DNA of 64,000 nt from Escherichia coli (GTDB lineage Bacteria; Pseudomonadota; Gammaproteobacteria; Enterobacterales; Enterobacteriaceae): NCBI RefSeq assembly GCF_024298765.1, contig NZ_CP101210.1, one strand, 5' to 3'. Position 1 is the stretch's first letter; every line of letters begins with the position of its first letter. The notes under the pieces were generated by a model. That model worked only from the letters and a program-made list of their open reading frames with translations. It searched no databases and was not told the DNA's origin. The position numbers and the translations under genes are program-made. Positions 1-23,450 of this stretch are shown piece by piece.

Positions 1-2283
1 TTTCATGCTGTGGCGGGTTCCCTGTGCCACAATGTCAGCCCACAGGCCGGAGGACGTGTGTGTCAGATTCAGGTATCCGCCCAGGCTGCCGGCATCATCC
101 CGGACCGTGCCGGCGCGGGAACCGTCATCATCCTTAACATCAACGGAAGAATGGCCTGCGGCACCATACACCCCTGTCGTCAGAGACATACCGGCAACCT
201 CTGTTCTGAGCAGGTCACCCTCCAGACGGACGAAGCCATAGCTGCCGCTGCTTTCCGGCGTGGCTCCACGGGCAATACCGCCGTTGTTATCGTGACCGAG
301 ATGACCGCCCTGAATGCTGAGACGGACGCTGTTATTTTCACCGTTTACACCGGTCTGATGGCTGCGGGAGCCTGCCAGAATCCGGTCATAGTCCATTGCC
401 TGTGTCAACATGGAGGCATACAGGGGGACTTCAGCACGATAAGCATTTTCACTGCGCAGGTACCAGTCTTCATCGCTGTCACGGTTCAGGGTGTAGTTAA
501 AGGCGCCGGCCTGAAGCGGGCGACTCAGGGCAAACGCACCTTCTTCTGTGGTGGCACCATTCTGTGCATCCACAACCCGGATACCCTGTCCGGAGGTTGC
601 CACCCCGAGGTTACTGTTTCCGACATTTGTAAACGCAAGCCAGGTTTTGCCGGTTGCCTGACCACCATTAATCACCAGCTGGTCAGAGGCATTGCTGCCA
701 TCAAGGCGAACACGCATATTGATGGTGCCACCCTGACCGGTGAGGTTACTGGTGGTCAGTTTATGGAACGTTACCGGGGCGTCGCCTTTTGCAACAGCAC
801 GGCTCAGGACGGCATCCTGTGTCGTCTGATTATCAAAGCGAATCTCCCCTGCGTTAACAATATCGCCGGTACTGACCACATCACCATTCAGTACCATGCT
901 GGCGCCTTTACTGAGCTGTGTTCTGCCACTCAGACTTCCCCCGGCAGCCAGCGTCAGTGTTCCACGATGTCCGACAGTGGTGTTGCCAGCCTGTCCCCCG
1001 GCATTAACCGTAAAGCTGCCGCCATTTTCCAGCAGCAGGCCGCTGGCCTGACCGGATATGCCATCAATACTGAACTTACCGCTGGCATTGGTCCCCTCAA
1101 CAGTGGCACCACTGTCTGCAATCAGGGCACCACCGGATGTCATGGTGACACCTGTCGCCTTACCACCGGCAGACACTGCCAGGGTTCCGCCGTCATCCAC
1201 CCGTGTTTTCTGCGCTGAATGGCCTTCCAGTACATCCAGGCGACCGCCGGACTCCAGAACAACGCCGTCAGCCTTACCGTTTTCCACCGTGAAATTGCCC
1301 AGACGGTTGCTGCCAAGAACCGTTGCCGCAGTACTGGTGACCAGTGCTCCACCCTGTTTCAGGGTGACATTCGTGGCTGTACCACCGGCGTTCACCTGCA
1401 GTTTGCCTTTCTGGTTAACGGTGGTGAAATCCGCCAGACCACCTTCCTTGACAATCTGCCAGCCGTCACTGTTTACAACCGTGTCAGAGGCTGTGCCTCC
1501 GTTGTGCACATACTGGTAACCGCCATTCAGTGTGGTATCCAGCGCATGCCCGTGTACCGTCTGGTCGCCGCCGGCATAAACCACAGTGGTATTTGCTGTT
1601 CCTTCAATAGCCACAATCTGACGACCATTTTTATTGATGGTGGTACGTACGGCATTTCCGCGAACAAACTGCCCGGTATCACCATTTTCTGCATCCGGTC
1701 CCCCTTCCGCGCCGGTATTCACAACCGTGTCGGTTGCCACTGCGCCGGATTTGACGGCCTGCCAGCCCTTCTCATTAATGACAGTACCCGTTGCAATCCC
1801 GCCTTCATGTACCCACTGCTCACCGCCGTTCAGAGTGGTGTTCACTGCCTGCCCCTGAAGGCTCTGTCCGCCTCCGGCACTGATAACCGTGTCTGAAACG
1901 CTTCCTCCGGCATTCACTCTCTGAAGACCACCACCGGTGACAGTAGTGTTGTTGGCGGTACCGCCATTTTGTATCCATTGGCCGCCGGTATTGGCCTCGT
2001 TATCCGGCCCATACTCCAGCCCGGTACTGATGGTCATTCCGTTGGCCGTACCGAAGACAATCTGGTTGTCATGATTTGTCAGTGTTCCGTCGTTCACGGT
2101 TTCTCCCGCCTGTACAACCGTGTCAGCAGCCAGTGCCGGGACTGATGTGACAGCAGCAAGAGACAGCGCAACCGCCACACCGGCGCGTTTTCCCCGTGAG
2201 CGGGCCAGTTCGGAAGCCACCACCAGGGTGCCCGTAATGTGATTCCATACCAGCCTGTAGCTGGTGTTCAGATGTCGTTTCAT
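1..2283 (-). CDS. flu: Antigen 43 (Ag43/Flu) self-associating autotransporter adhesin; N-terminal ~760 codons, 3' end runs off the window
   Basis: Reverse translation from ATG at 2281-2283 reads MKRHLNTSYRLVWNHITGTLVVASELARSRGKRAGVAVALSLAAVTSVPALA followed by Gly/Thr/Asn-rich beta-helix passenger repeats; frame stays open to position 1. Not in the ORF track because no stop lies in the window. Confidence 0.9.
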   Translation of the reverse strand, partial: MKRHLNTSYRLVWNHITGTLVVASELARSRGKRAGVAVALSLAAVTSVPALAADTVVQAGETVNDGTLTNHDNQIVFGTANGMTISTGLEYGPDNEANTGGQWIQNGGTANNTTVTGGGLQRVNAGGSVSDTVISAGGGQSLQGQAVNTTLNGGEQWVHEGGIATGTVINEKGWQAVKSGAVATDTVVNTGAEGGPDAENGDTGQFVRGNAVRTTINKNGRQIVAIEGTANTTVVYAGGDQTVHGHALDTTLNGGYQYVHNGGTASDTVVNSDGWQIVKEGGLADFTTVNQKGKLQVNAGGTATNVTLKQGGALVTSTAATVLGSNRLGNFTVENGKADGVVLESGGRLDVLEGHSAQKTRVDDGGTLAVSAGGKATGVTMTSGGALIADSGATVEGTNASGKFSIDGISGQASGLLLENGGSFTVNAGGQAGNTTVGHRGTLTLAAGGSLSGRTQLSKGASMVLNGDVVSTGDIVNAGEIRFDNQTTQDAVLSRAVAKGDAPVTFHKLTTSNLTGQGGTINMRVRLDGSNASDQLVINGGQATGKTWLAFTNVGNSNLGVATSGQGIRVVDAQNGATTEEGAFALSRPLQAGAFNYTLNRDSDEDWYLRSENAYRAEVPLYASMLTQAMDYDRILAGSRSHQTGVNGENNSVRLSIQGGHLGHDNNGGIARGATPESSGSYGFVRLEGDLLRTEVAGMSLTTGVYGAAGHSSVDVKDDDGSRAGTVRDDAGSLGGYLNLTHTSSGLWADIVAQGTRHSMK

Positions 2284-2494
2284 CAGCTTTTCCTTACAGA
2301 GGGTGAATAAAAAAGCCGGTACCCACAAAAGTGGATACCGGCAGGTACAAAACAGCATGGTCAGATAAAGTGGTTTTTCCCGGACATAAATGTTTCCCCT
2401 CTCTCATCCGCCAGAGAAGTATCAGTCCGTTGTGTGCAATTCCGTTCTGCATGATGAAGAGATTCAGCTGCCTTTTCGCAGACCATTAACCACT

Positions 2495-2540
2495 ATAAAC
2501 GATCGATAGTAACGATCGATACCTGTTTTATCGATCGTTT
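2495..2540 (-). promoter_or_regulatory. agn43 phase-variation switch region: three closely spaced GATC (Dam) sites in the flu leader, the expected OxyR-binding region
   Basis: GATC at about 2501-2504, 2514-2517 and 2533-2536 within aaacgatcgatagtaacgatcgatacctgttttatcgatcg, roughly 220-250 bp upstream of the flu ATG; matches the known Dam/OxyR switch architecture of agn43. Confidence 0.7.
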
Positions 2541-2653
2541 TATTCTATTAACAGCAAGGCAGTCACGCAAGAGAAAGAGGTGGATATGAGGGGGGTGTAT
2601 CATGTTTTCAGTTGGTTAACGCAATGTAATCAGGCATTTCCCTGGCAGACTGT

Positions 2654-3526
2654 TCAGAAGAAAATCCAGTTCCATACAGCGCGGGCAACAGAGACCACCG
2701 AGTCACGGACGGCACGCAGAACCGTGCGTGCAACAGAGGCAATACAGACGCTCTCCGCCGTGTCAAATATCCGGTCCACCGCACCGGTAAACTGTTCACG
2801 GGCCTGAGACCGGACAGATTCCGTGCGCAGCTCGTCCTGCAGGCGGGTCATCAGGGGACTGGCGGCATGGTCGGGAAGCGCTGTCATGAGCGCACTGACC
2901 AGCGTATCCAGTTCCCAGCCGGTGCAGGCCGATACGGCCACAACCGGATGTACGGGCCGGAACAGCCGGAATACCGCATCTGTTTTCTCACGAATGTTCT
3001 GTGCCTGTGCGGGAGAAGGCTGAATACCGGCCATATCCCATTCATGGCAGGGCTCCGTTTTGTCGGCCTGCGTCACCACAAACAGCACCCGCTGATGTCC
3101 CCGGTGCAGGATGTGTCGCCAGAAATACTCATCCACAGACAGGGCGCGGTCATCGGCTTTAATCAGCCACAGCACCAGGTCCAGTTCGGGCAGAATGTCA
3201 CGGTACAGGGCTTCATACTCTGCATCCCTGTCCCGGCTCTCGCCCACCCCGGGCAGGTCAGTGATAACCATGCTGTGACCGTGGCCACTCAGACGGAAGC
3301 GCCGCACTTCCCGGGTGCCGGCGTGAACATCACTGACCGGGGTGACCTCCCCCTGAAACAGCGCATTACAGAGTGAGGATTTACCGGCCCCGCTTTTACC
3401 CATAATGCCAATCACGGGTTCGTGACTGGTGAGTTTGCGCAGATGTTCCAGGATGTGACGGGAAAGTGAGTAAGGCAGGGAAGAAAGTGGTTTTTCAATT
3501 GCCTCAATGGCATCAGACGGATTCAT
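2654..3526 (-). CDS. yeeP: YeeP/YkfA/YfjP-family GTPase (CP4-type prophage-island protein)
   Basis: ORF 2654..3565; P-loop GIMGKSGAGKSS and DLPGVGE switch motif; position immediately upstream of flu as in CP4-44. Start at the internal MNPSD Met (3526) is my preference; the ORF-track start is 3565. Confidence 0.75.
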   Translation of the reverse strand: MNPSDAIEAIEKPLSSLPYSLSRHILEHLRKLTSHEPVIGIMGKSGAGKSSLCNALFQGEVTPVSDVHAGTREVRRFRLSGHGHSMVITDLPGVGESRDRDAEYEALYRDILPELDLVLWLIKADDRALSVDEYFWRHILHRGHQRVLFVVTQADKTEPCHEWDMAGIQPSPAQAQNIREKTDAVFRLFRPVHPVVAVSACTGWELDTLVSALMTALPDHAASPLMTRLQDELRTESVRSQAREQFTGAVDRIFDTAESVCIASVARTVLRAVRDSVVSVARAVWNWIFF

Positions 3527-3789
3527 ACATGTATTCCCGGTGAAAAAAGACAAAACCCCGCGCACCGGAAAGGTGGCGGGGGATTCACGGAGATAATATC
3601 TGTCTGAAATTATTTAGAATGCACCTGGTGCACTGCAAAGGAAAGGCAATATTCCGTTCCTCCTCCTTGTCGTGAATACCCCAGGTATCTCACAATGTAC
3701 ACCGACTTACTCCGGGGCTGCCTGAACCACAAGATTGCTGTAGAATTGCCCCCAATGATTCAGGTCCAAACCAGGAAAATGGATTAAAA

Positions 3790-5346
3790 ATGACAAGTAT
3801 TCAACAACGAGCAGAACTGCACCGCCAGATATGGCAAATTGCCAATGATGTCAGAGGTTCTGTTGACGGATGGGATTTTAAGCAATACGTTCTGGGCGCG
3901 CTTTTCTACCGTTTTATCAGCGAAAATTTTTCCAGCTATATTGAAGCCGGTGATGACAGTATCTGTTATGCGAAACTGGATGACAGCGTAATTACTGATG
4001 ACATTAAAGACGATGCCATCAAAACTAAAGGCTACTTCATCTACCCCAGTCAGCTTTTCTGCAACGTAGCTGCGAAAGCAAATACCAATGACAGACTGAA
4101 TGCAGATTTAAACAGTATCTTCGTTGCTATCGAAAGTTCTGCTTACGGTTACCCTTCAGAAGCTGACATCAAAGGTTTGTTTGCTGATTTCGATACCACC
4201 AGTAACCGCCTGGGTAACACCGTTAAGGATAAAAATGCCCGCCTGGCTGCGGTTCTGAAAGGGGTTGAAGGGTTAAAACTTGGTGACTTCAACGAACATC
4301 AGATTGACCTGTTCGGCGATGCCTATGAGTTCCTGATTTCTAACTATGCGGCGAATGCTGGTAAGTCAGGCGGCGAGTTTTTTACACCGCAGCACGTCTC
4401 CAGGCTGATTGCACAACTGGCTATGCACGGGCAGACCAGCGTTAACAAAATCTACGACCCGGCAGCAGGTTCCGGTTCGCTGTTGTTGCAGGCTAAAAAA
4501 CAGTTTGATGACCATATCATCGAAGAAGGTTTTTTTGGTCAGGAAATCAACCATACGACCTATAACCTGGCGCGTATGAACATGTTTTTGCACAACATCA
4601 ACTACGACAAGTTTGATATCAAGTTGGGCAATACGCTGACTGAGCCGCACTTCAGAGATGAAAAACCGTTTGATGCCATCGTTTCTAACCCGCCGTATTC
4701 GGTGAAATGGATTGGCAGCGATGACCCGACGCTGATTAACGATGAACGTTTTGCCCCGGCTGGCGTCCTGGCCCCCAAATCCAAAGCTGACTTTGCGTTT
4801 GTACTACATGCGCTGAACTATCTTTCGGCCAAAGGTCGTGCTGCGATTGTCTGCTTCCCGGGTATTTTTTACCGTGGCGGCGCAGAGCAGAAAATCCGTC
4901 AATATCTGGTCGACAATAACTATGTCGAAACCGTGATTTCACTGGCACCGAACCTGTTCTTTGGCACCACCATTGCCGTAAACATTCTGGTGCTGTCTAA
5001 ACATAAAACGGATACCAACGTTCAGTTTATTGACGCCAGCGAACTGTTCAAAAAAGAGACTAACAACAATATCCTGACCGATGCCCATATCGAACAGATT
5101 ATGCAGGTATTTGCCAGCAAGGAAGATGTTGCTCATCTGGCAAAATCTGTCGCGTTCGAAGCCGTTGTCGCGAATGACTATAACCTGTCGGTGAGCAGCT
5201 ATGTGGAAGCGAAAGATAACCGCGAAATTATCAATATTGCTGAACTGAATGCAGAGCTGAAAACCACGGTCAGCAAAATCGACCAGTTGCGTAAAGATAT
5301 TGATGCAATTGTGGCTGAAATTGAAGGCTGCGAGGTGCAGAAATGA
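3790..5346 (+). CDS. hsdM: Type I restriction-modification N6-adenine DNA methyltransferase subunit HsdM (type IC-like)
   Basis: 518 aa; SAM-binding motif DPAAGSGS and catalytic motif SNPPYS; stop overlaps the hsdS start (ATGA). Confidence 0.9.
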
Positions 5347-6569
5347 GCGAGTTGACTTATCTGGAAAAATTGCTGGATGGGGTTAAGGTTGAGTGGCAAA
5401 CACTAGGGAAAGTGCTTAAACGAACTAAAGGCACAAAAATAACCGCTGGGCAGATGAAAGCTCTTCACAAAGATAATGCGCCGCTTAAAATTTTTGCAGG
5501 AGGGAAAACAGTAGCCTTTGTTGACTTTAAAGATATACCAGAGAAAGATATTAATAGAGAGCCATCGATTATTGTTAAATCCAGAGGTATTATCGAATTC
5601 GAGTATTACGATAAACCATTCTCTCACAAAAATGAGATGTGGTCATATCACTCAAATAATGATGCGATAAGCATAAAGTATATTTATTACTTCCTAAAAA
5701 TAAATGAAGGATATTTCCAGAAAATTGGGGGTAAAATGCAAATGCCACAAATTGCAACTCCTGATACAGATAAGTTTGAAGTTCCAATCCCCTGCCCGGA
5801 TAATCCGGAAAAATCCCTTGCCATCCAGTCTGAAATCGTTCGGATTCTGGATAAGTTTACTGCACTTACCGCTGAGCTTACCGCTGAGCTTAATATGCGT
5901 AAAAAACAATACAACTACTATCGCGACCAGTTACTGAGTTTTGAGGATGGTGAGGTTGAGTGGAAGGCGTTAGGGACTATATGCCAAATTGGCGATGGCA
6001 ATCACTCATCAAAGTATCCTAAGGCGAATGAAATGATTGAGCAGGGGATACCCTTCATTCGTGGTACCAATATGGTGAATGGTACAATATGCAATCAAGA
6101 TATGAAGTACATATCTAAAGAAAAACACAATGAACTAAAAAAGGGGCATTTAAAAGCATTTGATGTTTTGATAGCTAATAGGGGAGAGGTTGGGAAGGTA
6201 GCATATGTTCCAGAGGGATATTCTGGATCTAATTTAAACTCCCAGTTAGCATGGCTTAGAGCCAACCCGGAAATTATCATTAATAGATATTTATTTTTCA
6301 TTCTTTGCTCATCAACCATACAGAATAAACTTTCTGGTGAAGGAGGGGCATTACAACAACTTACTATCAAGAACATAAAAAACATTCAGATACCTGTTCC
6401 ATCAATAACCGTTCAGAGCAATATCGTATCTTTTTTGGACAAGTTCGACTCGTTAACCAACTCAATCAGTGAAGGCTTGCCACGTGAAATCGAGTTGCGC
6501 CAGAAACAATACGAGTACTATCGTGATTTACTGTTCAGTTTCCCAAAACCTGATACTGTCAGTAATTAA
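5343..6569 (+). CDS. hsdS: Type I restriction-modification specificity subunit HsdS, type IC family, two target-recognition domains
   Basis: 408 aa; central conserved region [27 protein letters not shown] and C-terminal repeat [15 protein letters not shown]; the TAEL tandem repeat is the type IC (EcoR124I-family) hallmark. Confidence 0.85.
5868..5891 (+). repeat. 2 x 12-bp in-frame direct repeat (accgctgagctt) encoding TAEL-TAEL in the HsdS central spacer region
   Basis: Read directly in the sequence; in type IC HsdS the TAEL copy number sets the spacer length of the recognition site (EcoR124I vs EcoR124II). Confidence 0.85.
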
Positions 6570-6690
6570 TTGACCATTGCTACCGACCGGGCCACCTTAA
6601 CACCCGGTCTGTATATAGACTATTTTTTACGCGCCGGAAGTCACTCTTAACGCCCTTCCGGCCCTTGCCAGGCGGCACAAAGGATGCGCT

Positions 6691-9600
6691 ATGACTCATC
6701 AAACACACACCATTGCTGAATCCAATAACTTTATCGTCCTTGATAAGTACATCAAAGCTGAGCAAACAGGCGACAGCTATCAGAGCGAATCGGACCTGGA
6801 ACGGGAACTGATTCAGGACCTGCGAAATCAGGGCTATGAATTTATATCCGTAAAATCTCAGTCAGCGATGCTGGCCAACGTTCGGGAACAGCTTCAGAAC
6901 CTCAATGGTGTGGTGTTTAATGACAGCGAGTGGCGGCGTTTCACGGAGCAGTTTCTGGATAATCCGAGCGATGGCATCCTGGATAAAACCCGTAAAATTC
7001 ATATCGACTACATCTGCGACTTTATTTTTGACGACGGGCGTCTTGAGAACATCTATTTGATAGATAAAAAGAATCTCATGCGCAATAAAGTGCAGATTAT
7101 CCAGCAGTTTGAACAGGCAGGCTCTCATGCTAACCGTTATGACGTCACGATCCTGGTTAATGGTTTACCGCTGGTGCAAATCGAACTAAAAAAACGCGGG
7201 GTGGCGATTCGTGAGGCTTTCAACCAGATACATCGTTACAGTAAAGAGAGTTTTAACAGCGAAAATTCCCTGTTTAAGTATCTGCAACTGTTTGTCATTT
7301 CTAACGGCACCGATACCCGTTACTTTGCCAACACCACAAAGCGCGATAAAAACAGTTTTGACTTCACCATGAACTGGGCGAAATCAGACAACACGCTGAT
7401 TAAAGACCTCAAAGACTTTACCGCTACCTTTTTCCAGAAACATACTCTGCTTAATGTTCTGGTGAACTACAGCGTTTTTGACAGCAGTCAGACGCTACTA
7501 GTGATGCGACCGTACCAGATTGCTGCCACCGAGCGCATTCTGTGGAAAATTAAGAGCTCCTTTACAGCGAAGAACTGGTCAAAACCGGAAAGCGGTGGGT
7601 ATATCTGGCACACTACCGGTTCTGGTAAAACCCTCACCAGCTTTAAAGCCGCGCGTCTGGCAACAGAGCTGGACTTTATTGATAAAGTCTTCTTCGTGGT
7701 CGACAGGAAAGACCTCGATTACCAGACCATGAAGGAATATCAGCGTTTTTCGCCAGACAGCGTCAACGGCTCGGAAAATACCGCAGGCCTTAAACGAAAT
7801 CTGGATAAGGACGATAACAAAATTATCGTCACTACTATTCAGAAACTCAATAACCTGATGAAAGCAGAAAGCGACCTGCCTGTATATAATCAGCAAGTGG
7901 TGTTTATATTTGATGAATGCCACCGCAGCCAGTTTGGAGAAGCGCAGAAAAACCTGAAGAAGAAATTCAAACGCTATTATCAGTTTGGTTTTACCGGCAC
8001 CCCTATTTTCCCGGAAAACGCCTTAGGCTCAGAAACAACCGCCAGCGTATTTGGTCGTGAATTGCATTCGTATGTAATTACCGATGCGATTCGTGACGAA
8101 AAAGTGCTCAAATTCAAGGTGGACTACAACGATGTGCGACCACAGTTTAAGTCTTTAGAGACAGAAACTGACGAGAAAAAACTAAGTGCGGCTGAAAATC
8201 AGCAGGCGTTTCTTCATCCCATGCGTATTCAGGAAATCACGCAATATATTCTGAATAATTTCCGCCAGAAAACCCACCGTACTTTCCCTGGCTCCAAAGG
8301 TTTTAATGCCATGCTGGCAGTAAGCAGCGTGGATGCCGCGAAAGCCTATTACGCGACGTTTAAACGGTTACAAGAGGAAGCCGCTAATAAATCTACTACC
8401 TGTAAACCACTGCGTGTTGCGACAATCTTCTCCTTTGCCGCTAATGAAGAACAAAATGCGATTGGTGAAATATCCGATGAAACTTTTGATACCAGCGCAA
8501 TGGACAGCAGTGCTAAAGAGTTTCTTGACGCTGCAATTCGTGAGTATAACAGCTATTTTAAAACTAACTTCAGCACCGACAGTAAGGGTTTTCAGAACTA
8601 CTATCGTGATTTAGCCCAACGGGTTAAAAATCAGGATATCGATCTGTTAATTGTCGTGGGGATGTTTTTAACCGGTTTCGATGCTCCAACATTGAACACG
8701 CTATTCGTCGATAAAAACTTGCGTTTTCACGGCCTGATGCAGGCATTTTCCCGCACCAACCGTATTTATGATGCAACTAAAACCTTCGGTAATATCGTCA
8801 CTTTCCGCGATCTGGAACGCTCAACCATCGATGCCATAACGCTGTTTGGTGACAAAAACACCAAAAATGTAGTGTTAGAAAAGAGTTATGCAGAGTATAT
8901 GGAAGGCTTTACTGATGCTGCTACTGGTGAAGCTAAGCGCGGCTTTATGGCAGTAGTTGCAGAACTGGAACAACGGTTCCCTGACCCTGCCAGTATTGAA
9001 AGTGAAAAAGAGAAGAAAGACTTCGTTAAACTGTTTGGTGAATACCTGCGTGCCGAGAACATCCTGCAAAACTATGATGAATTTGCCACGCTGAAAGCCC
9101 TGCAACAAATCGATCTTAGCGATCCTGTTGCAGTAGAAAAATTCAAAGCAGAACATTATGTGGATGATGAAAAGCTCGCTGAATTGCAAACAATTCGTCT
9201 CCCTGCTGATCGCAAGATTCAGGATTATCGTTCTGCCTATAACGATATTCGCGACTGGCAGCGCCGTGAGAAAGAAGCTGAGAAAAAAGAGAAATCAACC
9301 ACTGACTGGGATGACGTAGTTTTTGAGGTCGATTTGCTGAAATCTCAGGAAATAAACCTGGATTATATCCTTGGTCTGATTTTCGAGCACAACAGACAAA
9401 ACAAAGGTAAGAGCGAAATGATCGAAGAGGTCAAACGCTTAATTCGTTCAAGCCTGGGGAACCGTGCTAAAGAGGGCCTGGTGGTCGATTTTATTCAGCA
9501 AACGAACCTGGATGATTTACCGGACAAAGCCAGCATCATTGACGCATTCTTTACGTTTGCTCAACGCGAACAGCAACGTGAAGCAGAAGCCTTGATCAAA

Positions 9601-9807
9601 GAAGAAAATCTCAATGAAGAGGCGGCGAAACGCTATATTCGCACATCTTTAAAACGCGAATACGCCACCGAAAATGGCACGGAATTAAACGAGACACTGC
9701 CCAGACTCAGTCCTTTAAATCCGCAATATAAAACGAAAAAACAGACTGTTTTTCAAAAAATTAGCGCATTTATTGAAAAATTTAAGGGGGTGGGTGGAAA
9801 GATTTAG
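6691..9807 (+). CDS. hsdR: Type I restriction endonuclease subunit HsdR (SF2 helicase/nuclease)
   Basis: 1038 aa; helicase motifs TGSGKT and DECHRSQ; RBS aaagga before the ATG; gene order M-S-R as in type IC systems. The TAG stop sits directly against the IS5 end. Confidence 0.9.
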
Positions 9808-11003
<1,196 letters not shown>

Positions 11004-11598
11004 CAAGAGAACGCAACAGCGCACTTGCTTTGCCACAGTTGAATTTTGTGCCGTAACGATGTGCAAGCATGTAAGCATAAGGAGTCAAGGTATAGCGTGT
11101 TACTTAGTTACTCGGATTAACAATCCCAACGTACAGAGCGGCGGATTTACAGAGTCAGCGCAGTCCCTGCTCCGGCAGTCAGTGGCAGGCGGCGTACTGA
11201 AGCAAACCATTATCGATACCGGCATCGGCGATACCATCGGCATGCTGATGTCACACGGCAATATTTCTCCCTACATCATGGCGTGGTTGATAACCGTGCT
11301 GATCCGTCTGGCAACGGGTCAGGGCGTGGTCTCAGCCATGACGGCGGCGGGGATTATTAGCGCAGCAATCCTCGACCCGGCAACCGGTCAACTGGTGGGC
11401 GTCGACCCGGCGTTGCTGGTGCTGGCAACAGCGGCTGGCTCCAACACGCTGACCCATATCAACGATGCTTCGTTCTGGCTGTTCAAAGGCTACTTTGATC
11501 TGTCGGTGAAGGATACGCTGAAAACCTGGGGTCTGCTGGAGCTGGTAAACTCCGTGGTTGGCCTGATAATCGTGTTGATCATCAGCATGATTGCATAA
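11004..11598 (+). pseudogene. C-terminal fragment of a GntP-family (gluconate/H+ symporter-like) permease, 5'-truncated at the IS5 boundary
   Basis: Open frame from the IS5 end to the stop at 11598; C-terminal hydrophobic segments ([35 protein letters not shown]...[17 protein letters not shown]) typical of GntP-family transporters; no start codon or N-terminal half. Confidence 0.55.
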
Positions 11599-11605
11599 CG
11601 TTGAT

Positions 11606-11638
11606 ACCGCTCTGGCCCACAGCGCCAGAGCGGTTTTC
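11606..11638. terminator. Hairpin terminator between the convergent GntP-fragment and ykgG (stem accgctctggc / gccagagcggt, then TTTT)
   Basis: 11-bp perfect inverted repeat with a 7-nt loop followed by a T-run on the + strand, in the 49-bp gap between convergent stop codons. Confidence 0.5.
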
Positions 11639-11647
11639 CATCCTGCC

Positions 11648-12343
11648 TCAACAATCCTCAATAATCAGATATACCGCCTTCACCGGACCATGCACCCCAA
11701 CCACCTTGATAAGCTCAATATCCGCCGTCGAGCTGGGTCCACTGATGATATTAATGCACGATGGCATACGCTCACCGGCCTGTGCTTTCTGATGCAGTTT
11801 TTCTGCCAGCTGCGCCACGCGCGGCAGGATGGTGCTTTTACGCAGCACGAAAATAGAGGACTCCGGCAACAGGCTCAGGGAGCGCCCGCGCTCCGGTGCG
11901 GAAAACAGCACCACGCCGCCGGACTCGGTCAGGCCATATTCGGCATACACCACGCCGACTTTCGCCTGCTCGGCCTGGGTAATATTTTCGCTACCACGCG
12001 CCGGATCCCAGACCACGGCGTTGCATTCCTGCTGCAAGCGTTCGGTGATGCCCAGCTCCACCAGCCGGCTGTCGCCGCTCAGCACCACCGGCTGCTGACC
12101 CAATTCTTCGCACAGGCGCAGTGCCGCGTCTGCGGCCTGGTCCTCGCTGGTCAGTTCGCAGCGGGCCAGCATCACTTCGCTGGCAAACTGGATAAACGCA
12201 GAGCAGCGCTGCTCGGGGCTAAGCTCGGTCAGGCGCTCGTTGGCATAGTTGTTAACCGGTGCGGCATCCGCTTGCGGTTCGAAGCGCAGCGGGCGACCCA
12301 GCGCCTGGGCGATGGTGTTTAAAAACGCGGTACGGTTATCCAT
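11648..12343 (-). CDS. ykgG: Lactate utilisation protein C (LutC/YkgG)
   Basis: Start at the internal Met MDNRTAFLNTIAQALGRP (231 aa), overlapping the ykgF stop by 8 bp; the longer ORF-track start at 12490 is rejected. Confidence 0.8.
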   Translation of the reverse strand: MDNRTAFLNTIAQALGRPLRFEPQADAAPVNNYANERLTELSPEQRCSAFIQFASEVMLARCELTSEDQAADAALRLCEELGQQPVVLSGDSRLVELGITERLQQECNAVVWDPARGSENITQAEQAKVGVVYAEYGLTESGGVVLFSAPERGRSLSLLPESSIFVLRKSTILPRVAQLAEKLHQKAQAGERMPSCINIISGPSSTADIELIKVVGVHGPVKAVYLIIEDC

Positions 12344-13763
12344 TCTTTTTCTCCTGCGCCTGATGTTTCTTAAACCAGCTGCGGAAGCTCTCGCCGTCAG
12401 CATCAGGCAGATCGCGCGCCTCCATCCAGTCACCAATCGCGCCAACCTTGAGCGGGGTTTTGCCGCCATTGAGAAACCAGCTCGCCGCATGCGCGCCCGC
12501 CATCATCCCGACTTTCCACAGCCCCGGATGGCTATTGGCATAGGCGAACATCTTGATCGCCCGTCGCTCGGCTTTCGGCGTAATGCCCTCCTCGGCCATC
12601 ACCCGGCGATGACGCAGGATCAGTTTTGACAACGGAATACGCACCGGGCAGACGCTGTCACAAGCCGTGCACAAAGAACAGGCGTACGGCAGGTCTTTAA
12701 AATCTTTATAGCCGCCGAGCAGCGGAGAAATCACCGCGCCGATAGGGCCGGGATAGATAGAGCCATAGCCGTGCCCGCCGATGTGGCGGTACGCCGGACA
12801 GGTGTTCATACAGGCTCCGCAGCGGATGCAGCGCAGCACATCGCGAAACTCTGAGCCCAGCACCTGCGAGCGACCGTTATCGACAATCACCAGATGGAAC
12901 TCTTCCGGTCCGTCAACGTTGTCCGCCTCACGCGGGCCGGTCAGCCAGGTGTTGTAGCCCGTCAGACGTGCGCCCACGGCGCTGCGCGCCAGCATGGTAA
13001 TCAGCACATCCACCTCGGCAAAGGTCGGCGCGATACGCTCCATGCCCATCACCGCAATGTGCGTTTTCGGTAGCGTGGTGCACATGCGCGCGTTGCCTTC
13101 GTTGGTCACCAGACACACCGAGCCGGTTTCCGCCACGGCAAAGTTACAGCCAGTAATACCGATTTCGGCACTGAGGAAATCCTCGCGGATCTTCTGACGA
13201 ATGAACAAGGTCATAGCTTCCGGGGTTTCCGGGCCGTCGTACCCCAGACGTTCGTTCAGCACGCGGCGGATCTGGTAGCGATCTTTATGAATCGCCGGAA
13301 CCACGACGTGCGAAGGCGGATCCTGATCCAACTGCAGGATATATTCCCCGAGATCGGTTTCGATCACCTGGATTCCGGCATCCTGCAACACATGGTTGAC
13401 GCCGATTTCTTCGGTCACCATCGACTTGGACTTCACCACCTTCTGCGCATTTTTACTCTGCGCGACCTGCAAAATGTAGCGAGTGGCATCTTCTTTGGTT
13501 TTGGCGAAATAGACGTGTCCGCCGTTTTCCGTCACTTTCTCGGAGAGTTGGTACAGGTAAGTGTCGAGGTTGCTCAGAACGTGATCGCGGATCTGGCTGG
13601 CACGATCGCGCCATTCTTCCCAGTGGCCTAACTCATCGACCATTTTTTGCCGATTCGCGCCGATACGCTCCTGCGCATTAGCCACGGCTTTGCGCATAAT
13701 CGGATCTTCTATCTGCTGACGAATACGCAGTTTAAATTCTACATCGCTGGTTTTTATCGACAT
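12336..13763 (-). CDS. ykgF: Lactate utilisation iron-sulfur protein B (LutB/YkgF)
   Basis: 475 aa; two 4Fe-4S ferredoxin-type Cys clusters (CIRCGACMNTCP and CSLCTACDSVCP). Confidence 0.85.
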   Translation of the reverse strand: MSIKTSDVEFKLRIRQQIEDPIMRKAVANAQERIGANRQKMVDELGHWEEWRDRASQIRDHVLSNLDTYLYQLSEKVTENGGHVYFAKTKEDATRYILQVAQSKNAQKVVKSKSMVTEEIGVNHVLQDAGIQVIETDLGEYILQLDQDPPSHVVVPAIHKDRYQIRRVLNERLGYDGPETPEAMTLFIRQKIREDFLSAEIGITGCNFAVAETGSVCLVTNEGNARMCTTLPKTHIAVMGMERIAPTFAEVDVLITMLARSAVGARLTGYNTWLTGPREADNVDGPEEFHLVIVDNGRSQVLGSEFRDVLRCIRCGACMNTCPAYRHIGGHGYGSIYPGPIGAVISPLLGGYKDFKDLPYACSLCTACDSVCPVRIPLSKLILRHRRVMAEEGITPKAERRAIKMFAYANSHPGLWKVGMMAGAHAASWFLNGGKTPLKVGAIGDWMEARDLPDADGESFRSWFKKHQAQEKKNG

Positions 13764-13773
13764 CTCTTTCCCC

Positions 13774-14493
13774 TCAGCGGCTCATCAGCACTTCAGCAAT
13801 ATGCATCACTTTGACCGGCTGGCCTTCCCGTTGCAGTCGACCGCCAATGTTCAGCAGGCAGCTAACGTCTGCGCCAATCAAAAATTCCGGCTTTGCGTCC
13901 ATCAGATGTAATACTTTCTCTTTCACCATCTCACCGGATATCTCGGCCATCTTGACCGAGAACGTCCCGCCAAAGCCGCAACAGGTATCCTGATCGGCAA
14001 ACGTCAACAGCTCCAGTCCGCGCACGTTTTTCAGCAGCGTAAGCGGCTCTTCCTTCACTCCCAGTTTGCGGGTCAGGCTACAGGAAGGATGATACACAGC
14101 GCGGCCCTGCAGGCTGGCACCAACGTCCACCACACCCAGTTTGTTGACGATAAAGGAGGTGAGATCCTGCATACGCGCGGAAACTTTCTCAGCACGCAGC
14201 GCCCATTCCGGTTCATCGGCCAGATACGTCGGGTAGCTTTTAACCGCGTAGGTGCAGGAGCCCGCCGGGGAGATAATCGGATCGTCGTTGTCTTCCAGCG
14301 CGGCGATCAGGTTTTTCATCCCGGGGATCGCCTCTTTGATGTAACCGCTGTTGATGGCTGGCTGACCGCAACACCCTTGCTTCTCGGGGAAATTAACGCG
14401 ACAACCCAGTTTTTCCAGCAGCAATACGGAGTCTCGTGCCATCCGTGATTTCAGTGCGTCACCAATACAGGTGACAAAGAAATTTACATTCAC
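13774..14493 (-). CDS. ykgE: Lactate utilisation protein A (LutA/YkgE), Cys-rich CCG-domain oxidoreductase subunit
   Basis: 239 aa MNVNFFVTCIGDAL...; Cys-rich motifs (CCGQP, CCGFGG). Confidence 0.85.
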   Translation of the reverse strand: MNVNFFVTCIGDALKSRMARDSVLLLEKLGCRVNFPEKQGCCGQPAINSGYIKEAIPGMKNLIAALEDNDDPIISPAGSCTYAVKSYPTYLADEPEWALRAEKVSARMQDLTSFIVNKLGVVDVGASLQGRAVYHPSCSLTRKLGVKEEPLTLLKNVRGLELLTFADQDTCCGFGGTFSVKMAEISGEMVKEKVLHLMDAKPEFLIGADVSCLLNIGGRLQREGQPVKVMHIAEVLMSR

Positions 14494-14567
14494 AATAACT
14501 ACTCCATTGCTTCATTTCTGTTTATTGCGCTTGATATCGCGATATCAAACAAATGTTCATTCGTATT

Positions 14568-16265
14568 TCATGCCCAGTTTTTATGTTTGCTGGTTTTACC
14601 AATACCTGGATTCATAGTGTTGGTCGGATCATTTTCCTGATAAAAACGTGCCAAATTTTCCTGCGCTTTATACAGATGGCCGACATTGTGTTCCGCCGGA
14701 TATTGCGCTCCGCGTTGGCGCAGTAATTCCAGCATCTGTTCTTTTAACGCGTGGGCATCTACGCCTTTTTTAACGATATAATCCTGATGGAATACATGGC
14801 ACATAAAATGGCCGTAATAGAGTTTATGCACCAACTGACTGTCAATTTCCGCCGGTAAATGCTCATACCATTCGGTATCATTGCGGCGTAATGCAATATC
14901 CAGCGCGAGAATATCCTCAACCTCGTCAGAATGAACGGCCTGATAACGAATGGCAGCACCCGCGGCGGCAAAACGATGCAGAAACGCCTTACTGCCCTCT
15001 TCCGCGGTACAGGTAAAGAACGCGCCCTCGGCCGATTTAAAATAGTCCGTTAACCATGCCTGGGCTTCGGCCACACCCTCACCGGACATTTTCAACATCA
15101 GATGGTGTTCATAGTTATCGCGCCAGGTCTTCATCCGCGCCGGGAGATGGCTCGGGAACAGATGGCTAAAAGCCTGCATCGCGCGGTCGGTAAAGTGCGG
15201 GCGAAAGATCTTCACCTTCTCAAGTATGGCCTCGGTACGCCCCTTCAGGTTGAAGAAGAACGGCATTTTGTCCGTGCCAAGTTTGTCGATCATCAGGAAG
15301 GTATCTTTGCTGTATTTCTCTGCAATATCATAGATATCGCGGTGCATATACTCCCCAGCAACCGGCAGGTTTGTAAAATTCGCCAGGATGTGGCGGCGAA
15401 TCTCAGTCAGGACATCAGTCTGATTGGTACCGATATAAAAGACCTGCTGGTTCTTCTCGGCTTCAAAGGTATCCAGACGTACGGCAAACACCGCTAACTT
15501 GCCCGCACAGCCAGAGGATTCAAACAGGCGATCCGGGTCAGCGTTGTAACGTGCTGGCGTGTCGGCATTGATGTCCCGCACGCGGCTAACATAGTCGTGA
15601 TCGTGCGCGTGACGCCCGTCATGGTTGACGAGCACGGCTTCAATCGCATTGTTATCCAGCCGGGCAAGGATTTGCTCTGGCGTCTGACCTAGCTCAATGC
15701 CGAGGTGATTGACCAGCTGCAAGCGTCCCTGTTCATCAATACGGGCAAACAGCGACATCTCGGTATAAGCCGGGCCACGCTGGACCAGAGAACCGCCGGA
15801 GTTATTACAGATACCGCCGATAACCGACGCGCCGATGCACGAAGAGCCAATCACCGAATGCGGCTCACGGCCAAACGGCTTCAGCGCCTTTTCCAGCGAA
15901 TACAGCGTGGTGCCCGGATAAGCCAGCACCTGCTTACCCTCATCCAGCACATGCAGACTGTCCAGCCGCAGCGTGCTGATAATGACGATCTCGCGGTCGT
16001 AATCATTACCATTGGGCGTCGAACCCTCAGTCAGGCCAGTGTTCGACGCCTGCATCAGGATTATTTTATCGGCCTCAACGCAGGCGCTAAGGACTTTCCA
16101 GAGTTCAAGCAAAGAGCCGGGGATAACCACCGCCAGAGCATCACCCTGACCCGAGCGAAAACCCTTACGGTAACGCGCAGTTTTTGACGGTTCGGTGAGG
16201 ATATGAGCAGGGCCAACCAATTGGGTAAGAGTTGTCAAAAAGGTCTTATTATCAGTATGTTTCAT
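14568..16265 (-). CDS. dld: FAD-dependent, quinone-linked D-lactate dehydrogenase (Dld family)
   Basis: ORF 14568..16313; preferred start at MKHTDNKTFL (16265) with ggag about 10 nt upstream; FAD-binding signature GSSCIGASVIGGICNNSGGS; ~565 aa, full length for Dld. Confidence 0.7.
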   Translation of the reverse strand: MKHTDNKTFLTTLTQLVGPAHILTEPSKTARYRKGFRSGQGDALAVVIPGSLLELWKVLSACVEADKIILMQASNTGLTEGSTPNGNDYDREIVIISTLRLDSLHVLDEGKQVLAYPGTTLYSLEKALKPFGREPHSVIGSSCIGASVIGGICNNSGGSLVQRGPAYTEMSLFARIDEQGRLQLVNHLGIELGQTPEQILARLDNNAIEAVLVNHDGRHAHDHDYVSRVRDINADTPARYNADPDRLFESSGCAGKLAVFAVRLDTFEAEKNQQVFYIGTNQTDVLTEIRRHILANFTNLPVAGEYMHRDIYDIAEKYSKDTFLMIDKLGTDKMPFFFNLKGRTEAILEKVKIFRPHFTDRAMQAFSHLFPSHLPARMKTWRDNYEHHLMLKMSGEGVAEAQAWLTDYFKSAEGAFFTCTAEEGSKAFLHRFAAAGAAIRYQAVHSDEVEDILALDIALRRNDTEWYEHLPAEIDSQLVHKLYYGHFMCHVFHQDYIVKKGVDAHALKEQMLELLRQRGAQYPAEHNVGHLYKAQENLARFYQENDPTNTMNPGIGKTSKHKNWA

Positions 16266-16700
16266 GGAGGGCGGCTCTCCGCTCCTTATATCAGGGCCAG
16301 TGAAAATGGCCATAAGTTCATTTGTACGACAAAACAGAATATTCCCTCAATCAATATCCACATGCAATACCCCATTTTATTTCTTTCGGCACCGCTCACA
16401 TTTTTTAATGAAATTACCACTACCACATAATTCATACTCCGTTCTTTTACTGGATGCCAAAACGCTTATTTCATTTATTGCAAAGACCATTTCATACCTA
16501 TTAATGATTAACTCTAATGGGTATTATTATATTTAGTGGTTATTCATATTTAATAAAAAAATAACATTATTTATACAATTATTAACCTTTGTAACTTTAT
16601 TTCACTGAAGCGATTCAGTTTGCATTTTTTATTTTATTATTAAGGTAGCCTCCTTCCCCCTAAATATAGTTAAGTCTAAAAAAGTAAATCGGGAATTGTA

Positions 16701-18254
16701 ATGCACGAATATTTAATGTTTGCTCTGGCACTCTCTCCTTTGCTGCTGATGGTATTTTTAATACTGAAATTAAAAATGCCCATCCATTATTCCGTACTGA
16801 TCTCTTTGGTATTCACCGCTGCACTATCGGCAATATTCTGGGAAATGCCCACACAGAATCTGAAAGCCGCGATAGGCTATGGTGCACTGAAGGGACTATG
16901 GCCGATCGTAATTGTTATCCTCGGCGCTATCTTCAGTTATAACGTCATGCAGGCGACCAAAGCGCTGGATATTCTGCGCGATATTCTCGCCAGCATTAGC
17001 GAAGATAAGCGTATTCAGGTGCTGCTGATTTCATGGTGTTTTGGTGGATTTCTTGAAGCCGCTGCGGGCTATGGCACGGCGGTCGCTATTCCGATCGGTA
17101 TTCTCATTGCGCTGGGATTCAACCCGTTGAAGGCGGCGATTGCTTCCCTCGTAGCAAATACCGTTCCGACCGCATTTGGCGCGGTTGGAATCCCGGTTTC
17201 TATTCTGGCAGAGCAGGTTAATCTGCCGGTTTATACCTTAGGCGGAACCATTATTTTGCAGCTCGCGCTGTTTAATATCCTGCTGCCGTTTGTGATTGTC
17301 TGCATTATTGGCGGTGGCCTGAAAGCCATTCGCGGCGTATTTCTGATCACGTTGATTTGCGGCATTTCCACGCTGGTTCCGCAATATTTTGTCGCCATCC
17401 ATCTTGGCGCGGAATTACCCGCCTTTGCCGGTAGCCTGGTCAGCCTGTTTGCCGTGGCGATGGTCAGTCGCCTGCGCAAAGGGAAAACCGATCCCGAGTG
17501 GCGCATTGAGGTCAGCCATACCCGCGAAACCACGCCGCGCTCGGCAAAAGTGTTGTTCCGGGTTGGCTCTATTTATCTGTTTATTTTTGTGTTTATCCTG
17601 CTGTGTTCGCCGCTGTTCCCGACAATAAAAGGCGCGGCATCCCAACTGGCTTCGGTGCTGCATTTCACGTTGGCTGACGGCAAAACGATGGCGCTGAAAG
17701 TTGAATGGGCGACCACACCGGGGATGCTGATCATCTTTGCGACCATTATCGGCGGTTTTATTCAGGGAGCGTCCGCACGTGGGATGCTGGAAGTATTTAT
17801 CAAAACGATTTTCCAGCTTAAAAACTCTATCGTCGCAATTATGGCGATCGTCGCGCTGGCCACGGTGATGGATCTCAGCGGGATTATCTCCACGCTGGCC
17901 CAGTCGATTGTCGATCTGACCGGCAGCTCGTACGTCTTCCTCGCCCCGGTGATTGGCGCGCTGGGCACGTTCGTGACCGGCAGCGATACCAACTCGAACA
18001 TTCTGTTCGGCAAGCTGCAAACCATTGCCGCCAGCAAGTTACATATCGATCCTAACTGGCTGGCGGCGGCCAATACCTCTGGCGCTACGGGGGGGAAAAT
18101 GATTTCGCCGCAAAGCATCGCCATCGCAGTTTCTGCCACCAAAATGGACGGTCAGGCCAACCAGATTATGTCTGGCACCATGAAATACTGCTGCGCCTAC
18201 ATTGTGATCCTCGGCCTGAAAGTCGGTCTGTTTTATTACTGGTTTATGGCGTAA
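16701..18254 (+). CDS. Lactate permease family (LctP) transporter, a paralog distinct from LldP
   Basis: 517 aa multi-pass membrane protein with the LctP signature GSDTNSN; divergently oriented from dld across an AT-rich intergenic region. Confidence 0.8.
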   Translation: MHEYLMFALALSPLLLMVFLILKLKMPIHYSVLISLVFTAALSAIFWEMPTQNLKAAIGYGALKGLWPIVIVILGAIFSYNVMQATKALDILRDILASISEDKRIQVLLISWCFGGFLEAAAGYGTAVAIPIGILIALGFNPLKAAIASLVANTVPTAFGAVGIPVSILAEQVNLPVYTLGGTIILQLALFNILLPFVIVCIIGGGLKAIRGVFLITLICGISTLVPQYFVAIHLGAELPAFAGSLVSLFAVAMVSRLRKGKTDPEWRIEVSHTRETTPRSAKVLFRVGSIYLFIFVFILLCSPLFPTIKGAASQLASVLHFTLADGKTMALKVEWATTPGMLIIFATIIGGFIQGASARGMLEVFIKTIFQLKNSIVAIMAIVALATVMDLSGIISTLAQSIVDLTGSSYVFLAPVIGALGTFVTGSDTNSNILFGKLQTIAASKLHIDPNWLAAANTSGATGGKMISPQSIAIAVSATKMDGQANQIMSGTMKYCCAYIVILGLKVGLFYYWFMA

Positions 18255-18511
18255 ACCATTGTCAACCCCGTCAAATTCGCGGCAATCGAATTTGACGACA
18301 TAGTGACCAAAAAGGTTTACACCGCCCCGGGAACGGAACGAGGCAACAGACTTTACGATTTGTCGGCGCTGACTAAAATAGCGCCGATGTTTCAAATCGA
18401 GGATTGTTGTTATGTTGTTCTGGAAAAAGATGGTGAAGAAGTTCGACGCCTTTTCCGGTGATGCTGCCAACTTACTGATTTAGTGTATGATGGTGTTTTT
18501 GAGGTGCTCCA

Positions 18512-18787
18512 GTGGCTTCTGTTTCTATCAGCTGTCCCTCCTGTTCAGCTACTGACGGGGTGGTGCGTAACGGCAAAAGCACCGCCGGACATCAGCGCTA
18601 TCTCTGCTCTCACTGCCGTAAAACATGGCAACTGCAGTTCACTTACACCGCTTCTCAACCCGGTACGCACCAGAAAATCATTGATATGGCCATGAATGGC
18701 GTTGGATGCCGGGCAACCGCCCGCATTATGGGCGTTGGCCTCAACACGATTTTACGTCACTTAAAAAACTCAGGCCGCAGTCGGTAA
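18512..18787 (+). CDS. insA: IS1 InsA (DNA-binding protein / transposition inhibitor)
   Basis: 91 aa with zinc-finger CPSC...CSHC; classic IS1 InsA. Confidence 0.9.
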
Positions 18788-21489: not shown

Positions 21490-21533
21490 CTGCTCTCCAA
21501 TGACTAGTCTAAAAACTAGTATTAAGACTATCA

Positions 21534-23450
<1,917 letters not shown>

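Follow-up and report, generated by a model that had tools for sequence, protein, structure and literature searches.

The 64,000-nucleotide stretch of E. coli DNA analysed here (the window) very probably carries an intact type IC restriction-modification operon, hsdM-hsdS-hsdR, in which hsdR was left unchanged when an insertion sequence (IS) came to lie directly at its stop codon through a deletion of ~3.8 kb that started from an IS copy further downstream. The operon is situated in an accessory island of the E. coli chromosome that reaches a tRNA-Thr gene, which we take to be thrW. The features of the operon and of the adjoining element are listed in Table 1.

Table 1. Features of the hsd operon and of the adjacent insertion sequence (window positions)
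Feature	Position	Strand	Description
hsdM, type IC methyltransferase subunit	3790-5346	+	518 aa, uninterrupted ORF
hsdS, specificity subunit	5343-6569	+	408 aa; 4-nt overlap with hsdM stop
Two tandem 12-bp repeats	5868-5891	+	translated as TAEL-TAEL; HsdS aa 176-183
hsdS-hsdR intergenic gap	6570-6690	+	121 bp, no ORF
hsdR, restriction/translocase subunit	6691-9807	+	1038 aa, full length, uninterrupted
TTAG	9804-9807	+	third base of Ile codon ATT and the stop codon TAG; IS target tetranucleotide
ISKpn26-type IS5-family element	9808-11003	-	1196 bp; starts right after the hsdR stop
IS transposase	9955-10935	-	326 aa; DDE_Tnp_1 and DUF772; convergent with hsdR
Right flank	11004-11598	+	starts CAAG; 3' part of a gntP-like gluconate permease gene (11185-11598, ~137 codons)

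The operon and its subunits

The operon appears to be a complete type IC restriction-modification system of the EcoR124 family, an assignment that follows from the full-length identity of HsdR and HsdM (~98-99%) to their EcoR124I/II counterparts together with the HsdS constant regions, the TAEL repeats and the M-S-R gene order. The original criteria for type I families were subunit complementation and antibody cross-reactivity (PMC3874165). HsdM matches the Pfam families N6_Mtase and HsdM_N and the NCBIfam model TIGR00497 (hsdM, 648 bits), and its residues 1-518 align with residues 3-520 of EcoR124II HsdM (7bst_D) with five substitutions (~99% identity); the AdoMet-binding motif DPAAGSG and the catalytic motif NPPY are located at residues 223-229 and 300-303, respectively. 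HsdR aligns over its full length with EcoR124I HsdR (2w00_A, 1-1038 to 1-1038, 2265 bits, ~98% identity), from which it differs by ~21 substitutions, and includes HSDR_N, SWI2_SNF2/ResIII and T1R_D3-like domains (Pfam/NCBIfam). Its motifs comprise D151/E165/K167, Q179/Y183, GSGKT (310-314) and DECH (408-411), with D151, E165 and K167 being presumably the catalytic residues known from EcoR124I mutagenesis. Q179 and Y183 are confirmed in PMC2475608, in which a term search gave no match for the D151/E165/K167 numbering.

An earlier, sequence-only reading of this region had described three full-length ORFs with their catalytic motifs, had assigned them to type IC from the gene order and the TAEL repeats, and had noted that no prrC-like gene lies between hsdS and hsdR. 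The coordinates and motifs are as claimed, the EcoR124 alignments, the HsdS constant regions and the TAELTAEL sequence agree with the family assignment, and the 121-bp gap leaves no space for prrC. Within this gap a promoter-like match at 6597-6626 is weak (9/12), and the promoter-like count of the whole region is not above the shuffled expectation.

HsdS, which contains two Methylase_S domains (Pfam), shows near-identity to EcoR124 HsdS (7bst_A) that is confined to the constant regions (N-terminal, central and C-terminal), and both of its target-recognition domains are unlike those of EcoR124I, so the specificity of the window enzyme is not expected to be GAA N6 RTCG. The first recognition domain is held in common with comparator allele L005 and the second with alleles L004 and L007; HsdS is a natural recombinant of recognition domains. 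Two TAEL repeats correspond to an N6 gap in EcoR124I, and three repeats to N7 in EcoR124II, EcoDXXI and EcoprrI (PMC3874165); by analogy, the two repeats in the window would place its HsdS in the N6 spacing class. Among the matches listed in an exact-sequence cluster look-up and a homologue search, no characterised enzyme shared either recognition domain, and the names of these matches are all generic ('restriction endonuclease subunit S'), so that the target sequence is not derivable from them.

Among the known systems, EcoR124I and EcoR124II, encoded by plasmid R124 and the prototype of type IC, have the same hsdM-hsdS-hsdR order, and EcoR124I also has an HsdR of 1038 aa (~98% identity), an HsdM of ~99% identity, near-identical HsdS constant regions and two TAEL repeats. 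However, their operon resides on a conjugative plasmid, whereas that of the window belongs to a chromosomal genomic island and has an IS against its hsdR stop. EcoprrI of the prrABCD locus is likewise a type IC core on an E. coli chromosome, but in it the anticodon-nuclease gene prrC separates hsdS from hsdR, and it has three TAEL repeats instead of two. The recognition-domain shuffling of EcoDXXI and of the engineered EcoR124I/EcoDXXI hybrids resembles that of the window HsdS, although EcoDXXI has three TAEL repeats and the window allele is natural; such module shuffling has been demonstrated experimentally for type IC enzymes (PMC3874165).

The sequence-only reading had also raised the possibility that the native 3' end of hsdR was replaced, and had named an alignment with EcoR124I/EcoprrI HsdR as a way to check the C-terminus. 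This suggestion does not stand, as the C-terminus is complete: the C-terminal 132 aa of HsdR align with EcoR124I residues 907-1038 and end at the same final residue, and the EcoR124_C domain (PF12008) is matched at positions 1-260 of 260. The gene ends in AAG ATT TAG, its last base being 9807, and the last 47 nucleotides shown before the TAG, as well as the TAG itself, are identical in the alleles of strains ET670 (L007) and DAX4 (L008), which are IS-free at the stop; zero mismatches to these two alleles were found over the final ~300 nucleotides. The HsdR C-terminus is therefore native, with only non-coding DNA downstream of hsdR being lost. The dN/dS values of hsdR against eight other alleles (~0.04-0.07) point to strong purifying selection.

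The insertion sequence and its flanks

The left terminal repeat of the element, GGAAGGTGCGAATAAG, occupies positions 9808-9823 and thus begins at the base after the hsdR TAG, as had been noted from the sequence, and its right end, CTTGTTCGCACCTTCC, lies at 10988-11003, the inverted repeats matching at 15 of 16 positions. The transposase is a full-length IS5-family protein (NF033581 matched at 1-285 of 285, 367 bits). The earlier designation of the element as IS5 holds at the level of the family and not for IS5 itself, as its type in RefSeq is ISKpn26: near-identical records (99.9% over the region) are annotated as 'IS5-like element ISKpn26 family'. Strains 13P460A and 2020CK-00188 match the region at 99.9% identity. 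In common with ISKpn26 and the IS5 family, the window copy has a size of ~1.2 kb, 16-bp terminal repeats, a full-length DDE transposase and one end at a YTAR-type tetranucleotide. Unlike simple insertions of this family, it lacks a 4-bp target duplication, its flanks being TTAG (left) and CAAG (right), in agreement with the sequence-only reading. The right flanks of other hsdR-adjacent IS copies are CTAA (in three contexts) or TTAG, which fits the YTAR preference, whereas the CAAG of the window is non-canonical. The missing duplication is attributable to rearrangement and not to the element being outside the IS5 family.

The position of the element directly past hsdR is explained by the stop codon, since the T preceding the TAG completes TTAG, a target of the IS5 family. 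On its other side, the element cuts a gntP-like permease gene that is 83-84% identical to the 3' part of E. coli gntP and that is annotated as 'gluconate permease, incomplete, missing N-terminus' in the collinear record NZ_CP019271.1.

Origin of the hsdR-IS junction

The most informative comparators are ET670 and DAX4, which contain the same island and operon and in which the hsdR TAG is followed by native sequence beginning with TAGTAACAAAAGG, identical between the two strains for more than 100 bp; no part of the window contains this native downstream sequence. In DAX4 the same IS, followed by the same right flank with the truncated permease gene, is found 3.8 kb beyond hsdR, and the window arrangement is that of DAX4 minus these 3.8 kb. 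Specifically, window positions 6462-9807 align with 6255-9600 of the DAX4 sequence, and 9804-14994 with 13410-18600 (99.6% identity). By these two collinear alignments, the window lacks the segment corresponding to DAX4 positions 9601-13413, and TTAG marks both breakpoints: window positions 9804-9807 form a 4-bp homology that aligns with both 9597-9600 and 13410-13413 of DAX4. The suspicion of the sequence-only reading that a deletion had occurred alongside the insertion is thus borne out.

It is probable that an IS copy already present ~3.8 kb downstream, where it truncated the gntP-like gene, had one of its ends joined to the TTAG at the hsdR stop, with deletion of the DNA in between, which comprised a porin gene and remnants of IS1 and IS3 in addition to the sequence natively following hsdR. 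End joining of this kind produces a deletion with no target duplication. Adjacent deletions and inversions mediated by insertion sequences are classically described for IS903 and IS1, and for the window IS both the deletion and the inversion counterparts were found among genomes. In strain CP131_Sichuan the opposite IS end abuts the same hsdR stop in inverted arrangement (porin-TTAG, the IS, then CTAA-hsdR as reverse complement). Such a configuration is what intramolecular transposition from a DAX4-like state would be expected to give as its inversion product, and the window corresponds to the deletion product.

Strain 2452 shares the arrangement of DAX4. DAX4 itself is not the direct ancestor, because its hsdR is only 96% identical to that of the window, compared with 99.6% for the IS and right flank; a DAX4-like arrangement probably existed in the window's own lineage. 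The DAX4 copy likewise has TTAG as its left flank and no duplication (TTAG/CAAG), so earlier rearrangements must have taken place as well. The direction of the deletion and its one-step nature are suggested by these comparisons of arrangement.

A possible, though less probable, route to the same end product involves two steps: a simple ISKpn26 insertion into the TTAG of the hsdR stop with target duplication, and subsequent homologous recombination between this copy and the one in direct orientation at the truncated gntP, 3.8 kb away, which removes the interval and one IS copy. The IS copies adjoining hsdR differ between genomes as SNP mosaics, evidence of IS-IS recombination or gene conversion at this locus. 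In addition, among 5426 complete E. coli genomes the hsdR-IS junction occurs in 211, with at least six different right flanks, a variety that is best explained by IS-IS recombination. However, the required intermediate, a simple insertion with the IS end followed by TTAG and the native downstream sequence, was detected with a chimeric query in none of the 5426. Recombination within the IS also cannot join its other end to the same TTAG as seen in CP131_Sichuan, which requires transposition-type end joining.

In the same genome set, the window arrangement from hsdR through the IS to the truncated gntP was identified in 34 genomes, the junction of the porin upstream region with the IS in 23, and the inverted junction of the CP131_Sichuan type in six. 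Close relatives of the 3'-end sequence of this hsdR were found in 1243 of the 5426 genomes (~23%). Strain CRE1540, with TTAG on both sides of the IS, was considered as a primary insertion and rejected, as the sequence after the second TTAG is not native and leads into an IS66-family element; a chance match to TTAG among YTAR targets is expected in about one of four cases. Plasmid matches with hsdMSR and ISKpn26 (H1-H7) were similarly rejected as carriers of the shared junction, the IS in H1 being located between hsdM and hsdS. The candidate papers from a literature search on ISKpn26 with hsdR or thrW describe neither the locus nor the hsdR/ISKpn26 junction.

Predicted activity and significance

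By analogy with EcoR124I, an M2S methyltransferase would methylate adenine within a bipartite asymmetric target, the half-sites of which would be set by the two recognition domains and would differ from those of EcoR124I. Association of M2S with HsdR would yield an endonuclease that translocates DNA at the expense of ATP and cleaves it, when unmodified, away from the site. The enzymatic activity of the system is predicted on this basis, and the strain probably restricts incoming DNA at a bipartite site, which would be relevant to transformation, conjugation and phage work in this lineage.

It appears unlikely that the operon is silent in restriction (R- M+ or inactive) because the 3' untranslated region of hsdR was lost, because the convergent transposase gene is transcribed antisense to hsdR, or because of one of the ~21 substitutions in HsdR. 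The IS has removed all native sequence past the hsdR stop. Its transposase gene reads toward hsdR, and HsdR levels could fall if transcripts from it ran into the 3' end of hsdR; moreover, in one comparator that shares the island, an ArdB/KlcA-type antirestriction gene lies immediately upstream of the position that corresponds to the left edge of the window. However, every catalytic motif is intact, all eight comparator alleles are full-length, including the five that adjoin the IS, and 60 of 60 junction records among the matches listed are annotated as HsdR. Little was apparently lost with the native downstream sequence, as no terminator-like element was detectable in it, and a terminator-like hairpin is located within the IS, 100 nt past the stop. 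The promoter and terminator scans gave counts not above the shuffled expectation and serve as weak annotation.

There is a slim chance that the IS acts as a portable homology handle, or that a convergent transposase transcript tunes HsdR and the junction has been kept by selection, the hsdR-ISKpn26 junction then representing a single old event beside an intact hsdR with its other flank swapped at least six times. As a handle, the IS would allow the type IC genes, together with the neighbouring arm of the island, to be moved or reshuffled between chromosomal contexts, and transcript tuning would amount to a built-in restriction alleviation. Replacement of the hsdR 3' end by IS-associated or foreign sequence, giving a non-native C-terminus, had only the missing target duplication in its favor and is refuted by the C-terminal alignments and the IS-free alleles described above.

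The preferred explanation, an intact operon abutted by the IS through deletion, has little importance beyond housekeeping, as type IC is the best-studied type I family and identical proteins are already deposited and named: exact HsdM, HsdS and HsdR are found on 95, 89 and 74 public contigs, respectively, all three under correct generic names. Nevertheless, the locus illustrates how an IS can generate adjacent deletions and inversions in nature where a stop codon doubles as its target, and how recognition domains are reassorted between type IC alleles of chromosomes and plasmids.

An EcoR124-family restriction-modification operon

The sequence-only reading is upheld in its observation and main interpretation: the three co-directional ORFs are real, with a 4-nt overlap between hsdM and hsdS, and the type IC system that they encode belongs to the EcoR124 family, is well understood and has been annotated before, and adjoins a common IS. 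As that reading also held, prrC is absent between hsdS and hsdR, since the 121-bp gap contains no ORF. HsdR aligned with EcoR124I HsdR (2w00 and others) over residues 1-1038 of both proteins (2265 bits), with ~21 substitutions as counted from printed alignments. Its last 132 residues correspond to EcoR124I 907-1038 with an identical C-terminal ending, and the Pfam EcoR124_C profile was covered over 1-260 of 260 positions, up to residue 1031 of 1038. The earlier suspicion that the 3' end of hsdR had been replaced is thus refuted, the alignment to EcoR124I being complete to the last residue. HsdM 1-518 differs from EcoR124 HsdM 3-520 by five substitutions. HsdS (408 aa) aligned end to end with EcoR124 HsdS (404 aa), but near-identity is confined to the N-terminal, central and C-terminal constant regions, whereas both recognition domains are unlike.

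HsdM carries both the NPPY and DPAAGSG motifs, and HsdR has GSGKT at 310-314, DECH at 408-411, and D151, E165 and K167, which we take to be its nuclease residues. HsdR also has the RecB-type Q179 and Y183, whose role in EcoR124I is described in PMC2475608. HsdS contains two TAEL repeats, a number that gives an N6 gap in EcoR124I, three repeats giving N7 in EcoR124II, EcoDXXI and EcoprrI (PMC3874165). Exact-sequence look-up and homologue search gave only generic public names for the hsdS allele and its relatives, from which no recognition sequence could be derived. Nothing in the sequence speaks against activity, and we infer that the enzyme is probably active.

Features of the operon, the adjoining IS and neighbouring loci (window positions)
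Feature	Position	Strand	Description
Ag43/Cah autotransporter gene	to ~2283	minus	cut by left window edge
YeeP/YkfA-like GTPase gene	2654-3526	minus	
hsdM	3790-5346	+	Pfam N6_Mtase, HsdM_N; NCBIfam TIGR00497
hsdS	5343-6569	+	Pfam Methylase_S x2
hsdR	6691-9807	+	Pfam HSDR_N, SWI2_SNF2/ResIII, T1R_D3-like, EcoR124_C; NCBIfam TIGR00348
Junction ORF	9782-9973	minus	63 codons; begins within IS, stops within hsdR 3' end
IS element	9808-11003		1196 bp; inverted repeats 15/16 matching
Transposase	9955-10935	minus	326 aa; full-length IS5-family enzyme (NCBIfam)
Lactate-utilisation cluster	11648-18254		
InsB ORFs of IS1 copies	18706-19209, 27218-27721		
Extra segment	19225-29508		10.3 kb
IS2	20261-21534		
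GmrSD-like gene 1	23464-24918		484 aa; GmrSD_N, DUF7834
GmrSD-like gene 2	24911-26953		680 aa; GmrSD_N, GmrSD_C
PDC-M16A/B	29174-33534		gene 1, 979 aa: DUF4145, SF1B helicase, TBP-TOTE; gene 2, 474 aa: DUF7017, S1CSD-TOTE-2

The IS at the hsdR stop codon

The 3' end of hsdR reads AAG ATT TAG (stop at 9805-9807), and the IS begins at the very next base, 9808, with GGAAGGTGCGAATAAG, as had been noted. The IS is bordered by TTAG to the left and by CAAG to the right, which bears out the reported lack of a 4-bp duplication. The sole correction to the observation concerns the name IS5: the transposase is of the IS5 family, but near-identical RefSeq records name the element 'IS5-like element ISKpn26 family'. 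IS5-family elements prefer YTAR targets, and the location at the stop codon is explained by ATT-TAG making TTAG, a YTAR-type site. Right flanks of other hsdR-adjacent IS copies begin with CTAA (in three different contexts) or TTAG. The junction ORF, called 'hypothetical protein' WP_306417990.1 by RefSeq in many genomes, is probably a gene-calling artefact, usable as a marker of the junction.

Strains ET670 and DAX4 have the same GTPase-hsdMSR arrangement as the window. After the identical ...GGAAAGATTTAG, both continue with TAGTAACAAAAGGAAC..., sharing >100 bases of native downstream sequence found nowhere within the window. In DAX4, 160 bp of native sequence separates hsdR from IS1B, beyond which lie remnants of transposases, a porin gene that is intact, and ISKpn26, the last being the same IS as in the window with the same right flank, CAAGAGAACGC..., leading into a truncated gntP-like permease gene (gntP') and then lutCBA-dld; strain 2452 has the same layout. 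In pairwise alignments with the DAX4 locus (L008), window 6462-9807 matches 6255-9600 and window 9804-14994 matches 13410-18600 (99.6% identity), so that the window is without L008 9601-13413. The suspected deletion accompanying the IS is thereby supported, 3.8 kb of this layout being missing with TTAG at both breakpoints; the left flank of the DAX4 IS is ...GGATTATTAG.

Among 5426 complete E. coli genomes, the hsdR/IS junction of the window occurs in 211, the full hsdR/IS/gntP' arrangement in 34 and the porin-upstream/IS junction in 23. In CP131_Sichuan (L015), porin-upstream sequence ending in TTAG is followed by the IS and CTAAATCTTTCC..., the last part being the reverse complement of hsdR, so that here the stop-codon TTAG of the window junction meets the other end of the IS; this type of junction is present in six genomes. 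Since an IS end keeps its flank in intra-element recombination, the two orientations imply two transposition-type end joinings. We favour a one-step IS-mediated adjacent deletion as the origin of the window arrangement. Starting from a DAX4-like layout, intramolecular transposition into the hsdR-stop TTAG would yield two canonical products, namely a deletion (hsdR-TTAG/IS/gntP', as in the window) and an inversion (hsdR-TTAG/inverted IS/inverted porin segment, as in L015). A two-step route, with simple insertion followed by IS-IS recombination, would give the same product and appears less likely; simple insertions, with the IS followed by TTAG and native downstream sequence, were found in none of the 5426 genomes. 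DAX4 serves to model the ancestral arrangement and is not itself the ancestor, its hsdR being only 96% identical to that of the window. Two points are mildly notable, namely that a deletion and an inversion form a clean pair at a target site made by a stop codon, and that the hsdR/IS junction is widespread.

The IS removed all native DNA 3' of the hsdR stop. No terminator-like structure was detectable in the native hsdR downstream sequence of ET670, and the IS itself has a terminator-like hairpin ~100 nt past the stop. As the transposase gene is convergent with hsdR, antisense effects on hsdR are conceivable.

The CP131_Sichuan chromosome (NZ_CP053720.1; L013, L015) has two hsdR copies ~218 kb apart, both adjoining ISKpn26 at the stop codon via opposite IS ends, one with a truncated hsdS upstream.

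Alleles and right flanks in other genomes

The left hsdR/IS junction is constant among the sampled genomes, and the right flank is variable: a gntP' fragment (window and loci L001 and L012), an integrase (YSP8-1), an AT-rich stretch that runs up to an autotransporter gene (47-1826), an IS66-family element (CRE1540), HNH and Hhe genes together with the remnant of a second hsdM (L010, L011), or IS3 and phoH (L013). The hsdR-adjacent IS copies are SNP mosaics, as is usual where dispersed IS copies recombine homologously. Beyond the IS in L010 and L011 (porcine ETEC, O139 strains), positions 5690-8600 hold another defence cluster, with a truncated second hsdM, an HNH endonuclease fragment and an Hhe anti-phage helicase.

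Purifying selection on hsdR is strong (dN/dS 0.04-0.07 against eight alleles). The hsdR alleles are block mosaics, a pattern that indicates frequent recombination. HsdS of the window combines TRD1 of 47-1826 with TRD2 of YSP8-1 and ET670, all of these having two TAEL repeats, and is a natural reassortant. The 3' 600 nt of hsdR was matched at roughly at least 90% identity in 1243 of the 5426 genomes, at 754 chromosomal and 610 plasmid places. It is suggested that type IC alleles may be exchanged between plasmids and the chromosomal island. Plasmid NZ_CP062914.1 (L003), a phage-plasmid-like replicon with ~97% nucleotide identity to the window across hsdMSR, carries the same hsdS allele at 7577-8800, frameshifted after codon 56; intact near-identical (99%) copies of this type lie on ~107-111 kb contigs.

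Island context and neighbouring loci

The window, part of an E. coli chromosome, runs collinear with that of strain 13P460A except for the 10.3-kb extra segment, and the identity is 99.95% over 1-19224. The operon lies within a CP4-type island arm with Ag43 and a YeeP-like GTPase, both typical genes of such islands. Comparators have antirestriction and CbtA/CbeA genes further left in the island; the antirestriction gene, of ArdB/KlcA type, shares the island with the type IC system and lies another few kb to the left. The accessory region extends to a tRNA-Thr beside proA, presumably thrW.

The cluster right of the IS is a second, divergent lactate-utilisation cluster. It has dld and an L-lactate permease gene, and its lutC/B/A paralogues share only ~81% identity with ykgEFG. 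Only 98 of 5426 genomes have a match covering at least 80% of the first 1.4 kb of the IS right flank (11004-12400). The extra segment, absent from 13P460A, the closest comparator, is bounded by IS1 copies. Besides IS2 and an IS5-family fragment, it holds two GmrSD-like genes side by side, whose best PADLOC matches are HEC-06, Orf5 and SspE-like; these are probably a type IV-like restriction pair on an IS1 composite. PDC-M16A/B is a two-gene candidate defence system ('TOTE conflict system'). In 13P460A, the helicase ORF is annotated as shorter (2619 bp), with the end of the IS1 transposase gene 1 bp ahead of it; the window ORF encodes 979 aa.
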